Source of the DNA: a virus
DNA: 64,000 nucleotides
Strand: one strand, 5' to 3'
Virus genome (UHGV): UHGV-0070660
A model generated the notes under the pieces. The model was not told the origin of the DNA. It did no database searches and saw only the letters and a list, made by a program, of their open reading frames with translations. A program made the position numbers and the translations under genes. Below, piece by piece: positions 20,834 to 27,090 of this stretch; position 1 is the first letter of the stretch; the number at the start of each line of letters is the position of its first letter.

Positions 20834-21274
20834 ATGGCCACACTATCTGATACAATAAAACCGAATAAAACATATCTTGAGGCGGTACTCCGTACAGCGT
20901 TGTTAGGAAAGACAGAAGACGAATACGTTGATTTCTTCCTGTCAGGGCTACGCGGGCGATTACTGAAAAATCCCCGCCTGTACCGCAGCTATGGCCCATA
21001 CTGGCCGGAAATTAAAAAATTATTACTGGAGCGCGGTTATGGTAATTTCGGTCGTCTCGTTGACCGTGACGTTCGCAAAATTTACCGTTATGACCGCCCG
21101 GCGCTGACGCTCATAGCTGCGACGCTCTACAGCCAGGAGCGTTTTGATAATGGTCAGATATACTCAGCCTGGCATTTACTGCCAGTGCCTGAAGAGGTTG
21201 ACGACCAGGACTATGAGTTTGAGTCTTACGATTTGGAAGTTGAAGCCTTGGCACAGGCTGGAGAGAAAACTTGA
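20834..21274 (+). CDS. ulx: Ulx (upstream of lxc)
   Basis: 146 aa, position between darB and lxc. Confidence 0.45.
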   Translation: MATLSDTIKPNKTYLEAVLRTALLGKTEDEYVDFFLSGLRGRLLKNPRLYRSYGPYWPEIKKLLLERGYGNFGRLVDRDVRKIYRYDRPALTLIAATLYSQERFDNGQIYSAWHLLPVPEEVDDQDYEFESYDLEVEALAQAGEKT

Positions 21275-21519
21275 AGAAGCGATACTACACAGTAAAGCAT
21301 GGGACGCTACGAGCATTGCAAGAGTTTGCTGATAAGCATAACGTTGAGGTGCGCAGGGAAGGGGGAAGTAAAGCTCTGCGCATGTACCGTCCTGACGGAA
21401 AATGGCGGACGGTCGTCGATTTCAAAACTAACAGTGTTCCCCAGGGCGTCCGCGACCGGGCATTCGAAGAATGGGAGCAGATCATCATAGATAACGCATT
21501 GCTTCTGAACGCTGATTAA
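21271..21519 (+). CDS. lxc: Lxc/Bof modulator of C1 repression
   Basis: 82 aa, 4-nt overlap with ulx; size and position match P1 lxc. Confidence 0.55.
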   Translation: MKKRYYTVKHGTLRALQEFADKHNVEVRREGGSKALRMYRPDGKWRTVVDFKTNSVPQGVRDRAFEEWEQIIIDNALLLNAD

Positions 21520-21571
21520 TAATCATTTAAAGCCCATATGATATGGGCTTAAACAACAGGATCGATATACA

Positions 21572-22612
21572 GTGTTAGTTAAATATATAGGCGAGAGTTA
21601 TATGGAAAAACCTTGGCCGGGCATGCACATTAGAACATCTTGTCTGGAGGATGGTTTCTTTAGAGCAACGCAACCAAAGTATCTTAATGATCCGTCGAGT
21701 GAGTCGCGACTTCTTCCATTTTTTAATAAATTTTCACCAGCCGATTACGCATGGGCTAGAAATGAATTTAAGAAAATGCAACGAGATCCATCTTATGTCC
21801 CATCTATACAAGAGTTAGAGTATTATTTAAAACCTTGCGGGAAACGATACGGAGAGGATTTTCCACACTTGTTAATCAATGAAGGTTTTACCTCAATGGA
21901 TTCATATGATGAATCTAAACTCCAAGAAATAGTAACGTACCTTAACGATTATTTAGTAGAAGCCGTAAGCTGTCATCTTGGTGTATTCTCTCTATCAAAA
22001 AGTGATTGCAATCTACACATGTGGACTCATTATGCATCGATAGGAAAGGGGTTTGCTGTAGTTTTCGATGAAACACACGATTTTTTTAAAATATATCGGC
22101 CGTGTGATGTTAGTTATAATCCAGAAGATAGAGCATCTGTAACCTATTATAAAGGCGCTGTGCGATTTAATGGCTATCCTGCGCCATCGAGGAATATAGA
22201 TATAAAGAATAAAGATAATACATTGCATGGGATCTTAAATCGAGATCCAGTTCGCGAGCTTTTTATTAATAGGCTTCTTTATACAAAAGGTGAAGAGTGG
22301 CTTCCTGAAAATGAAAGTAGAATTATTTTTCCATTGGCTGATTGCGAGAGAAAAATAGGAAGCATTGTCTCTCCATCGATTGATGATTGCCTATTGAATG
22401 AGTATCCTGATGTTTTTCATGACTATCATGAAATTAACTTAAAGAAAATTCCTTTTTCTGCATTCAAGCAAATTACCTTAGGGTATAACATGACTGAAAA
22501 AGATAAAAATATAATTTTAGATAAAGTTAGTTCGAATAAAGAATTGTCTCACGTCAACGTATTACAATCAAAACTTGATATATACGGAAAGGTTGTGGTT
22601 AAGCCCATGTAA
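21572..22612 (+). CDS. DUF2971-like protein, AT-rich cargo gene
   Basis: 346 aa (GTG start; first ATG at 21602); motif GVFSLSKSDCNLHMWTHYASIGKGFAVVFDE resembles DUF2971 signature; markedly AT-rich versus backbone. Confidence 0.5.
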   Translation: MLVKYIGESYMEKPWPGMHIRTSCLEDGFFRATQPKYLNDPSSESRLLPFFNKFSPADYAWARNEFKKMQRDPSYVPSIQELEYYLKPCGKRYGEDFPHLLINEGFTSMDSYDESKLQEIVTYLNDYLVEAVSCHLGVFSLSKSDCNLHMWTHYASIGKGFAVVFDETHDFFKIYRPCDVSYNPEDRASVTYYKGAVRFNGYPAPSRNIDIKNKDNTLHGILNRDPVRELFINRLLYTKGEEWLPENESRIIFPLADCERKIGSIVSPSIDDCLLNEYPDVFHDYHEINLKKIPFSAFKQITLGYNMTEKDKNIILDKVSSNKELSHVNVLQSKLDIYGKVVVKPM

Positions 22613-22709
22613 TAATACGCTTATGTCTACACTTCATGATAAATACCTTCCTTAACTTAGGAAGGTTAGTTGTGGGTTTACGCAGAAAGTAACAAATAAC
22701 CTTCGTAGG

Positions 22710-23351
22710 TTATAGAATATTATTCTTTCCGGTGAGTATTCCTTGAGGAACTCTAGCGCATCCCATAATTTGAGTTTTCTTGATGATGTTTATATATGAC
22801 GCTATCAGCGATGAGTCATCACGACTATCCACTTCAGAAGCCATTGCCCTGATGTACTCGGCGCTGGCAACGTTGTTGTATTCCGTCGCAAAGCAACATA
22901 GTAACGTCAGAACATGCTCTGTCGTTATTTCGCTCCAGTTGATGTTGAAAAATTCATCGCCTTTTTTATCGTGTTCGGAATCGAAGATGCTTTGGTGGAG
23001 GATGTATTTGCCGGATTCCTTGCGCGGTAACTTGATCGCTTTCTGGCGTTCCAGCTCCTTGTAAATCTGCATTGCTTCAATCAGTACCGGCCTGCCGTTC
23101 ATGAAGGGATCGCGCAACCTTACACGCTGGCCAACTCGACCAGTAATAAAGCTGTTTTCCTCTTCCACCAGCACGATAAAACCCTTTTCCTCTTTTTCTC
23201 GCAATTCGCGCAGCAGCTGGAGTTCCATATCGCGGCGGCGTTCAGGGTAGCTGGTCCGCTCAGCCATTATCAGCTCGTTATTGATCCATGCAGCAGTCAT
23301 TGACGCCGGTTTGCCGACGCTCATCGAAACAACGCATATTTTCTTATCCAT
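22710..23351 (-). CDS. hypothetical protein, possibly Mat by position
   Basis: 213 aa from ATG 23351 with GGGGG RBS (track ORF extends to 23498); backbone-like GC. Confidence 0.4.
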   Translation of the reverse strand: MDKKICVVSMSVGKPASMTAAWINNELIMAERTSYPERRRDMELQLLRELREKEEKGFIVLVEEENSFITGRVGQRVRLRDPFMNGRPVLIEAMQIYKELERQKAIKLPRKESGKYILHQSIFDSEHDKKGDEFFNINWSEITTEHVLTLLCCFATEYNNVASAEYIRAMASEVDSRDDSSLIASYINIIKKTQIMGCARVPQGILTGKNNIL

Positions 23352-23801: not shown

Positions 23802-24820
23802 ATAGCAGGCAATGCAGGGGAGAGCGCCAATGCAGATTTATCCAGATCCTTCAGCGAGCGGAGCCGTTTTTTCTGCCCAATCTTTCTGGCGTCACGGATG
23901 ATAACGGCCAGCATGGCGTCCAGAACGTCCAATGCATCATCCAGCGCCAGCGTTTCCCATGCAAGGACAAAGGCAACCAGAACCGCCATCCTTTTCTGCG
24001 GTGACATCCTGGCAATATTGAACACCGAAGTCATACCAGCATAACGTGCGAGATTTTTCAGGCGCACAGCCGGGAGTGTACTCAGGTTTTCAGCATGCAG
24101 GCCAAAATCGTTCAGAGTTTTCCAGCGTTCAATTGCTTCATTAAACGCCGGACCACTGATGGTCACAGGGCCCTTTTTCAGTGATTCCAGTAAAGACAGG
24201 CGGCTGCAATCAGTTGGCCCCAGCAGCATCTCCAGCTGTGAACGCTGTTCGGCTGACGGTATCAGTGCCAGTTTGTTCCACAGGCGCAACGTCGCCTTTT
24301 CCCTTACCTCTGAAATCAACCGGGTCAGCGTAGTGGCTCCGGGGAGAATAATACGATGTTGCATAAGCCACCCTGTCGCCAGATCGAAAAGCAGGCCAGG
24401 ACGTTCGTTGCTTATCCAGCTCCGGGTATATAAAAGACGGGTAAGGCGAAATGTCCAGGGCCAGGCAAATTCACGATACTGATAGTGCTGACGTATCAGC
24501 GCTGCATGCTCACGGCGGGTATTTTCCCTCTGACCGTATTCTGCAAGAACGGTGATATCACGAATCCCGAGCTGTCTGGCGGTAAAATGCCGGACGCCGG
24601 AAGGAATATGATTCATATCGGTGAGGAAGGTGCCCAGAAAACGGACACATCCAATTTGCAGGGCAATGCCCAGACGGTTGTGATCACCTCTGCTTTTTCC
24701 GATAAATTCCTTGTCTGCTTCATCAAGGTGAAAATATCGTGCCAGCTGAAGCTCATCCGGTTCACCGGTGAATCTGCCATAGCTTTCAGTCTGCTCAGTG
24801 GTCAGAAAGTCAACGGGCAT
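23789..24820 (-). pseudogene. tnpA: Tn3 transposase TnpA, N-terminal about 337 aa only
   Basis: begins MPVDFLTTEQTESYGRFTGEPDELQLARYFHLDEADKEF; Tn3 TnpA is about 1000 aa, frame ends after short junction-encoded tail. Confidence 0.85.
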
Positions 24821-25541
<721 letters not shown>

Positions 25542-25653
25542 TACGCCTATTTTTATAGGTTAATGTCATGATAATAATGGTTTCTTAGACGTCAGGTGGC
25601 ACTTTTCGGGGAAATGTGCGCGGAACCCCTATTTGTTTATTTTTCTAAATACA

Positions 25654-25681
25654 TTCAAATATGTATCCGCTCATGAGACAA
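25654..25681 (+). promoter_or_regulatory. bla P3-type promoter
   Basis: TTCAAA -35 and GACAAT -10 in TTCAAATATGTATCCGCTCATGAGACAAT. Confidence 0.7.
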
Positions 25682-25711
25682 TAACCCTGGTAAATGCTTC
25701 AATAATATTGA

Positions 25712-26584
<873 letters not shown>

Positions 26585-26693
26585 CTGTCAGACCAAGTTT
26601 ACTCATATATACTTTAGATTGATTTAAAACTTCATTTTTAATTTAAAAGGATCTAGGTGAAGATCCTTTTTGATAATCTCATGACCAAAATCC

Positions 26694-26731
26694 CTTAACG
26701 TGAGTTTTCGTTCCACTGAGCGTCAGACCCC
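26694..26731. repeat. Tn3 38-bp terminal inverted repeat (right end)
   Basis: CTTAACGTGAGTTTTCGTTCCACTGAGCGTCAGACCCC. Confidence 0.9.
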
Positions 26732-26755: not shown

Positions 26756-26780
26756 GCCTGGCTCCTTGCCAGGCTTTTTT
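26756..26780 (+). terminator. rho-independent terminator-like hairpin
   Basis: GCCTGGC-TCCTT-GCCAGGC followed by TTTTTT; overlaps cra stop. Confidence 0.6.
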
Positions 26781-27090
26781 ATTTCATCATGGAAGCTGTT
26801 AACGCTTTGGATCTTGCTGAACTGATTGAAAGGGCATTGTTTACCTTACCCAGGAGTTCGCCAAATTCCGCCATCACTCTAGTAAGCCCGCGCCGCGCTT
26901 CCTCCTCCGTTGCATTCATCACAAAATGTTCAGCACTCCGCATGCTTTTAACGGGGAACGCAACAGATATCGAGTCGATATCAGGCATCCTATCGCTCAA
27001 CTTTACGGTGACAATGACAGATGGTGACTGAATTTGAGAGCTTACAGACAGCACCACATATTTTCCGTCTATTTTGAAATCCTTCCGCAT
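26779..27090 (-). CDS. cra: Cra (cre-associated function) by position
   Basis: 103-aa ORF immediately downstream of cre. Confidence 0.5.
   Translation of the reverse strand: MRKDFKIDGKYVVLSVSSQIQSPSVIVTVKLSDRMPDIDSISVAFPVKSMRSAEHFVMNATEEEARRGLTRVMAEFGELLGKVNNALSISSARSKALTASMMK

Follow-up and report, generated by a model that had tools for sequence, protein, structure and literature searches.

The locus between lxc and mat

We analysed a 64,000-nucleotide stretch of the virus genome UHGV-0070660 (hereafter the window, to which all positions refer), a P1-like element in which a gene for a DUF2971 protein lies between lxc and a mat-like gene. In P1 (NC_005856) the annotated gene order is cra-cre-c8-ref-mat-res-mod-lxc-ulx-darB. 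An initial annotation, made from the window sequence alone, had recognised the same flanking order, with darB-ulx-lxc on one side of a slot and mat-ref on the other, and had placed the restriction-modification (R-M) genes res and mod in the corresponding interval of P1; comparison with the P1 record bears this out. By blastn, P1 homology stops at the lxc stop codon at 21519 and restarts at 22828, a point 118 nt inside the 3' end of mat, so that the replaced segment is 21520-22827. The replaced DNA thus runs beyond the interval as originally drawn, to 22827, and takes the last 39 mat codons. The features that define the locus are listed below.

21271..21519, plus strand: left anchor of the slot, the conserved lxc gene (96% identity to its P1 counterpart)
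21520..22827, no strand: variable cassette with no P1 counterpart, which stands in for the 6.4-kb mod/res of P1 (blastn against P1 NC_005856; GC content)
21572..22612, plus strand: gene for a DUF2971 protein with a predicted ADP-ribosyltransferase (ART) fold, 346 amino acids (aa), RefSeq WP_029401522.1; the sole plausible gene of the cassette
22710..22827, minus strand: diverged 3' tail of mat, 39 codons, which moves with the cassette; no DNA homology to P1 mat, GC 36%
22828..23351, minus strand: right anchor of the slot, the portion of the mat-like gene that is conserved (97% identity to P1 mat)

The program-made list of open reading frames (ORFs) of the 64-kb window gives the 346-aa ORF at 21572..22612 on the plus strand, with a GTG start. 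As had been stated, it is the single ORF of substance in the interval: no other exceeds 71 aa, and neither a Res/Mod-like ORF nor an insertion sequence, IS1 included, is present. A 71-aa ORF at 22013-22228 on the minus strand runs antisense inside the DUF2971 gene and is probably a by-product of AT-rich sequence. The GC content of the 346-aa ORF, noted from the start as far below that of the backbone, is 35.4% (28% at third codon positions), compared with 48.7% for the window (s.d. 3%, 1,041-bp windows) and 51.8% for darB-ulx-lxc, and the ORF is the lowest-GC kilobase of the 64 kb. RefSeq already labels the gene ‘DUF2971 domain-containing protein’, and PGAP records annotate both the GTG and an ATG 10 codons further in as the start. 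Since the N-terminal MLVKY is nearly invariant among 33 full-length homologues, we take GTG 21572 to be the true start and dropped ATG 21602. A putative ribosome-binding site precedes it:

21558..21561, plus strand: AGGA, Shine-Dalgarno-like, 10 nt 5' of the GTG (read from the sequence)

Because the lxc promoters are annotated in P1 upstream, within ulx, read-through from them into the cassette is possible.

Distribution of the cassette and occupancy of the slot

The ulx-lxc flank was found in 699 plasmids of PLSDB, and 90 of these (~13%) carry the cassette at 95-100% identity. The plasmids come from E. coli, Salmonella, Shigella and Klebsiella; two "P1" phage records carry the cassette as well. 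Occurrence in only ~13% of P1-like elements led us to reject the idea that this is a core P1 gene. Among 5,426 complete E. coli genomes the cassette was present in 63, with 64 of its 65 places on plasmids. The only chromosomal copy in that set, at 2156203-2157392 of NZ_LR134247.1 (E. coli NCTC9040), may be an integrated P1-like element.

A comparison of the slot across P1-like phage-plasmids, as the initial annotation had proposed, confirmed that its contents vary. Twelve other P1-like plasmids drawn from the spread of match ranking contained SIR2 (three plasmids), type III mod-res (two), a YaaC pair (two), an EAL gene with or without an HTH gene (two), RelA/SpoT (one) or nothing (two). The SIR2 protein has 434 aa and is PDC-S25/ThsA-like in PADLOC. 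The RelA/SpoT protein, of 373 aa, is 100% identical to the product of the phage SJ46 gene, that is, CapRelSJ46, a validated single-gene anti-phage system (PMC9712102). Totals over PLSDB were 112 for type III R-M (50 at >=99%), 66 for SIR2 and 22 for CapRel. The lxc-mat interval is a compact cargo/defence hotspot, and the earlier description of the position as a known defence slot agrees with the type III R-M, CapRelSJ46 and SIR2/ThsA-like genes found there in other P1-like elements.

All six variants checked at the sequence level diverge at the lxc stop. P1 and the SIR2, CapRel, type III R-M and empty variants rejoin at window position 22828, and the YaaC and EAL variants do so 12-14 nt deeper in mat. 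These shared junctions suggest that slot contents are exchanged via homologous recombination in the flanking genes. The mat tails are strongly diverged in DNA among slot variants and retain the C-terminal peptide PQGxLTGKxNxL; they may represent old allelic lineages with a recombination breakpoint at this place.

The res-mod region has been published as the low-GC "variable region 1" of P1-like phage-plasmids (PMC9603915), and a DefenseFinder-based survey of P1-like elements reported type III R-M, dGTPase, PrrC and CapRel and does not list the present gene (bioRxiv 10.1101/2025.09.12.675607). About 1 in 8 of these clinically relevant P1-like elements, in E. coli, Salmonella, Shigella and Klebsiella, carries a gene that this survey overlooked. 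With its fixed junctions now documented, the hotspot also offers several occupants that are uncharacterised. A YaaC-family protein of 345 aa with a 169-aa partner (L005:349-1895 and L021:308-1857 among the slot loci) is a recurrent pair, and the EAL-domain gene with or without the HTH gene (L007:324-2647, L023:1252-1941) is a recurrent occupant; neither has a PADLOC match, and by position both are further uncharacterised candidates.

Protein family and conserved residues

Pfam PF11185 (DUF2971) matches residues 150-251 of the window protein with profile positions 1-89 of 89, at 27.3 bits where the cut-off is 22. The same family scores above its gathering threshold in 34/34 aligned homologues, with nothing else credible. 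The motif LHMWTHYASIGKGFAVVFDE, which had been read as a DUF2971 signature, marks the start of this match. The hidden Markov model (HMM) search against defence databases that had been suggested together with Pfam was also productive: four PADLOC PDC-S31 HMMs matched, namely PDLC04994 (E = 2.1e-16), PDLC04990 (1.6e-14), PDLC04991 (9.4e-11) and PDLC04992 (7.2e-6). These are raw HMM E values with the PADLOC coverage rules left aside; the best match spans residues 120-183 only, and one HMM spans 118-332. In PHROGs the protein matches phrog_1762, of unknown function, and a search of NCBIfam gave no family.

In a search of 5.8 billion proteins, the window protein fell in a 99%-identical cluster with 839 member sequences. 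An exhaustive profile search returned 8,487 cluster representatives at E<=1e-3 and 39 at E<=1e-30. Judged by these searches, the group to which the window protein belongs is a small gamma-proteobacterial subfamily of a very large family (> 8,000 clusters at 50% identity), in which one member has been validated. The segments of the gene that encode the most conserved parts of the protein are as follows.

21662..21664, plus strand: R31 codon, candidate ART motif I (F-R-x-T-Q-P..L-N-D), invariant in a 24-sequence alignment
22019..22324, plus strand: Pfam DUF2971 core, from M-W-x-H-Y154-A (motif II) to W243-x-x-E246-x-E248-x-R250 (ExE, motif III), as delimited by the Pfam match

In the 24-sequence alignment, which reaches down to 22-36% identity, K4, R31, P35, D40, L141, Y154, G160, K239, W243, E248, R250 and G304 are invariant, and E246, M150 and W151 nearly so. 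R31 is nearly invariant in the 33-homologue alignment too. Along the sequence, R31, Y154 and E246-x-E248 stand in the order of ART motifs I-III, for which they are candidate residues.

Structural model and ADP-ribosyltransferase assignment

Structure prediction followed by a fold search was another step put forward in the initial annotation. The AlphaFold2 model, built on a 34-sequence alignment, is confident (pLDDT 91.2, pTM 0.85) and is predicted to contain the ART core fold, with DarT and Tpt1 as its nearest folds; Foldseek of the model against PDB and BFVD gave no significant match. A 2025 survey assigns DUF2971 to the ART superfamily, with DarT and AbiGi as relatives, and attributes to the family a strictly conserved Tyr, an ExE motif, large helical inserts and a poorly conserved motif I (PMC12522546). 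Y154 and the ExE motif of the window protein agree with that description. A second publication likewise models a DUF2971 protein, Aristaios, as an ART (PMC11381338), so the earlier statement that the family has no assigned function does not hold. The ART link is a fold-level one, moderate but consistent, and for catalysis by the window protein itself the balance tips slightly in favour.

It might be argued that the protein is catalytically inert or not an ART at all, or a neutral hitch-hiker, and that its ART likeness reflects a shared scaffold only. Such a view would account for the moderate fold scores and the lack of Foldseek matches, and for the lack of a sequence-level link to solved ARTs. 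It would also fit the presence of Arg in motif I where the H-Y-E enzymes have His, in a family whose motif I is poorly conserved (PMC12522546). However, R31, Y154, E248 and R250 are strictly conserved down to 22% identity, and the cassette ORF is intact in 96/99 plasmid matches (tblastn, PLSDB). Between two alleles we counted 7 synonymous and 7 non-synonymous changes, none at conserved positions, which corresponds to a dN/dS of ~0.26, albeit from small numbers. Together with the two independent publications that give the ART assignment (PMC12522546, PMC11381338), these observations make that view unlikely.

Homologues in other mobile elements

Homologues outside P1-like elements occur in varied settings. 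In Salmonella, a homologue 47% identical to the window protein occupies, as a solitary antisense gene, the space between gpV and gpS in a P2-like prophage (L012:10001-11050). At least 24 contigs show this arrangement, and the homologue appears in 121 blocks of the index; the position is presumably the P2 orf30 moron site. In Serratia the homologue is found beside smpB, where a P2/HP1-like prophage ends. The Klebsiella homologue belongs to an integrative island with AlpA, H-NS-like, Mrr-like, reverse-transcriptase and MobA genes and is flanked on both sides by H-NS-like genes (L008:9136-11614). A 2026 preprint on NAP sensors (PANGU) describes nucleoid-protein sensors that activate diverse effectors, and makes no mention of DUF2971 or ARTs. 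In the Salmonella, Serratia and Klebsiella contexts no neighbour gene is conserved beside the homologues, which argues that the gene works alone. Given that the Salmonella homologue sits in a P2-like prophage, the family is found at cargo sites in two or more unrelated kinds of temperate phage.

The same contexts bear on the idea that the product is a virulence effector, secreted or injected to act on eukaryotic cells. No secretion-system genes or signal features were found in the cassette or beside the homologues, and the gene is carried for the most part by E. coli plasmids of commensal, livestock or environmental origin. We regard this explanation as extremely unlikely.

They bear also on whether the ART could be a weapon of the phage-plasmid itself, an offensive or counter-defence enzyme used against the host during infection or induction. 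T4 Alt, ModA and ModB are established examples of phage ARTs that modify host machinery. The window gene follows immediately after the darB-ulx anti-restriction genes and lxc and shares their strand, and relatives in phrog_1762 are common in phage genomes, all of which would be in keeping with such a role. Nevertheless, the same slot holds host-protecting R-M and CapRelSJ46 in sister elements, and the Salmonella homologue is antisense to P2-like late operons, as lysogenic-conversion genes are. In addition, 87% of P1-like plasmids lack the gene, which is therefore not needed for the phage life cycle, and the sole tested member of the family defends against phage (PMC11381338). An offensive enzyme seems distinctly unlikely.

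Comparison with known defence systems

The tested member, Aristaios, is a single 316-aa DUF2971 gene of the Lactococcus plasmid pUCCL641_199 that confers phage resistance by abortive infection (Grafakou et al., NAR 2024, PMC11381338). According to a 2026 review it interferes with phage transcription, its mechanism and escape route being unknown (PMC13064643). Compared by description, Aristaios and the window gene are alike in being single DUF2971 genes of ~320-350 aa with a predicted ART fold, carried as plasmid accessory cargo. They differ in that Aristaios comes from a Gram-positive host, whereas the window protein exceeds it by 30 aa and falls in a gamma-proteobacterial subfamily. A tblastn search of PLSDB with the window protein gave no Lactococcus matches, and none of ten distant relatives of ~300-318 aa that we looked up was lactococcal.

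With Aristaios shown in 2024 to be a DUF2971 defence gene, and with the PDC-S31 match at E = 2e-16, the family statements of the initial annotation, which knew of no named defence system of this type, are out of date. Its proposal of an undescribed single-gene defence system survives in part: the gene is a single-gene, horizontally acquired cargo in a defence slot, of a kind that is already described. On the family matches, then, it is best classed as a putative member of the single-gene DUF2971/ART defences (Aristaios-like, PDC-S31) and not as an undescribed system. PDC-S31 resembles it as a single-gene candidate with four matching HMMs; PDC systems are candidates from genomic association, and a literature search on the name ‘PDC-S31’ returned no paper.

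Three other systems provide further comparisons. In contrast to DarT of DarTG, the window gene has no adjacent DarG macrodomain antitoxin and no DarT Pfam match, and its product has an ExE motif together with, in the model, large helical inserts and an extra C-terminal region. CapRelSJ46 shares the lxc-mat slot of a P1-like element and is likewise a single low-copy cargo gene, a self-contained sensor-effector enzyme that aborts infection; it differs in its RelA/SpoT toxSAS fold, its pyrophosphorylation of tRNA and its opposite strand in the slot. EcoPI, the type III R-M system encoded by P1 res/mod, occupies the same position, with mod in the same orientation directly downstream of lxc. Unlike the window gene it comprises two genes over 4.9 kb, cleaves DNA and has no sequence or fold relation to the DUF2971 protein.

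Proposed function

Our preferred interpretation, which we hold with only modest confidence, is that the gene encodes a self-contained, NAD-dependent DUF2971 enzyme of ART fold, exchangeable as lxc-mat cargo, that aborts infection by other phages. Of its parts, an anti-phage defence role is the firmest and is likely. The lysogen would transcribe the gene with, or from just downstream of, lxc, and the protein would stay inactive until triggered by a superinfecting phage. The active enzyme would then spend NAD+ to ADP-ribosylate its target, which by analogy with DarT might most readily be a nucleic acid. Phage gene expression or replication would be blocked and the infection aborted, which would protect the lysogen population and the plasmid with it. 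We favour a nucleic-acid target, tentatively, on the grounds that the nearest folds are those of DarT and Tpt1 and that Aristaios acts on transcription.

Several observations weigh against this interpretation. The ORF list shows no antitoxin or second gene in the cassette that could restrain a toxic ART, and the scan upstream of the gene on the plus strand found no sigma-70 consensus promoter. Sequence identity between the window protein and Aristaios is probably low. HMM profiles run against PDB sequences recovered no solved ART and nothing usable, and neither the protein nor its family matches a DarT or AbiGi Pfam model (34 members, E<=5, only PF11185). Outside P1-like elements the next-best relatives, full-length proteins of ~350 aa from Klebsiella, Serratia, Salmonella, Vibrio, Shewanella and others, are only 53% identical. 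Finally, hotspot position is circumstantial evidence, as the same slot also holds EAL/HTH genes and the YaaC pair, which have no defence annotation.

Two further readings can be set beside this one. One is that the protein is a single-polypeptide sensor-effector, in which the helical inserts and the C-terminal region would hold a DarT-like, nucleic-acid-directed ART inactive without an antitoxin until a phage cue frees it. This is a speculative and rather unlikely scheme; if true, it would be a way of controlling ART toxins that has yet to be described, and the gene would serve as the tractable E. coli model from which the workings of the very large DUF2971/Aristaios family could be learned.

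The other concerns a toxin for maintenance or inter-element competition, which would stabilise the plasmid or exclude rival plasmids or P1-like elements rather than lytic phages. The R-M system that P1 itself carries in the slot doubles as an addiction module. An addiction role has also been noted for phage-plasmid R-M systems (PMC10879196), and DarT and similar ART toxins are components of toxin-antitoxin modules (PMC12522546). However, post-segregational killing requires an unstable antidote, and the cassette lacks an antitoxin or immunity gene, nor is one conserved next to the homologues. A maintenance toxin is, in our view, very unlikely.

If the gene is instead an active defence, as we prefer, it would alter which phages, therapeutic ones included, can grow on strains that carry these often resistance-bearing plasmids. 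Being native to E. coli and P1, it would also be a tractable model for the trigger, the target and the antitoxin-free restraint of an ART.

Hairpins at the cassette ends

The initial annotation had described the gene as bracketed by inverted repeats. Both repeats exist where they had been placed, but each is a self-complementary local hairpin and they do not form a terminal pair.

21527..21553, plus strand: perfect hairpin TTAAAGCCCATAT-G-ATATGGGCTTAAA with 13-nt arms (inverted-repeat scan)
22645..22666, no strand: stem-loop ACCTTCCTTAACTTAGGAAGGT (stem of 8 bp) in the gap where the DUF2971 and mat genes converge (terminator scan)

The upstream hairpin starts 8 nt past the lxc stop, ends 18 nt ahead of the GTG and is not followed by a U-tract; as RNA it has a 9-bp stem of -12 kcal/mol. 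Its 17-mer has no partner at the far end of the cassette within 3 mismatches. The downstream stem-loop is terminator-like on the minus strand, with a fold z of -3.5 for 22610-22715. A transposon-type cassette was rejected, as the repeats are unrelated local hairpins, matching terminal repeats are lacking and there is no transposase.

Most slot variants that we read, the empty one included, carry a GC-rich hairpin immediately behind the lxc stop, each with its own sequence (L002:264-300, L003:298-330, L005:291-320, L006:272-310). This pattern suggests a structural requirement at this point, for example for terminating lxc transcription or for stabilising the RNA. In E. coli H15 plasmid A (NZ_CP010179.1, 4001-4800), lxc is followed by the same 38-nt hairpin sequence, IS1 and encapsulin/peroxidase genes, and the DUF2971 gene is gone; the arrangement looks like an IS1-mediated deletion derivative. 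Because other variants have their own hairpin at this point and the 38 nt survive loss of the gene, the upstream hairpin probably serves as an operon-boundary or 5'-UTR (untranslated region) element.

Neighbouring genes and a Tn3-family remnant

Two details of the neighbourhood needed correction. The ORF that had been labelled cra, at 26779-27090 on the minus strand, is c8 (P1 1518-1829), and cra lies beyond cre. The insertion sequence within mod of the P1 reference is IS5; IS1, whose absence from the slot the initial annotation had noted, lies elsewhere in P1. In the mat-like ORF the phrog_1837 alignment begins at residue 50, and the PGAP gene at this place measures 642 nt.

Further along, a 2.9-kb Tn3-family remnant at 23831-26731 takes the place of P1 1879-2347, a segment in which P1 has the promoter/operator of ref and the opening 271 nt of that gene. 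The remnant consists of tnpR at 24948-25541, a minus-strand piece of tnpA that encodes the N-terminal part, and, at 25724-26584, a gene for a TEM-type beta-lactamase, which we take to be TEM-1. As other carriers of the cassette have an intact ref, the Tn3-family insertion is private to this element.

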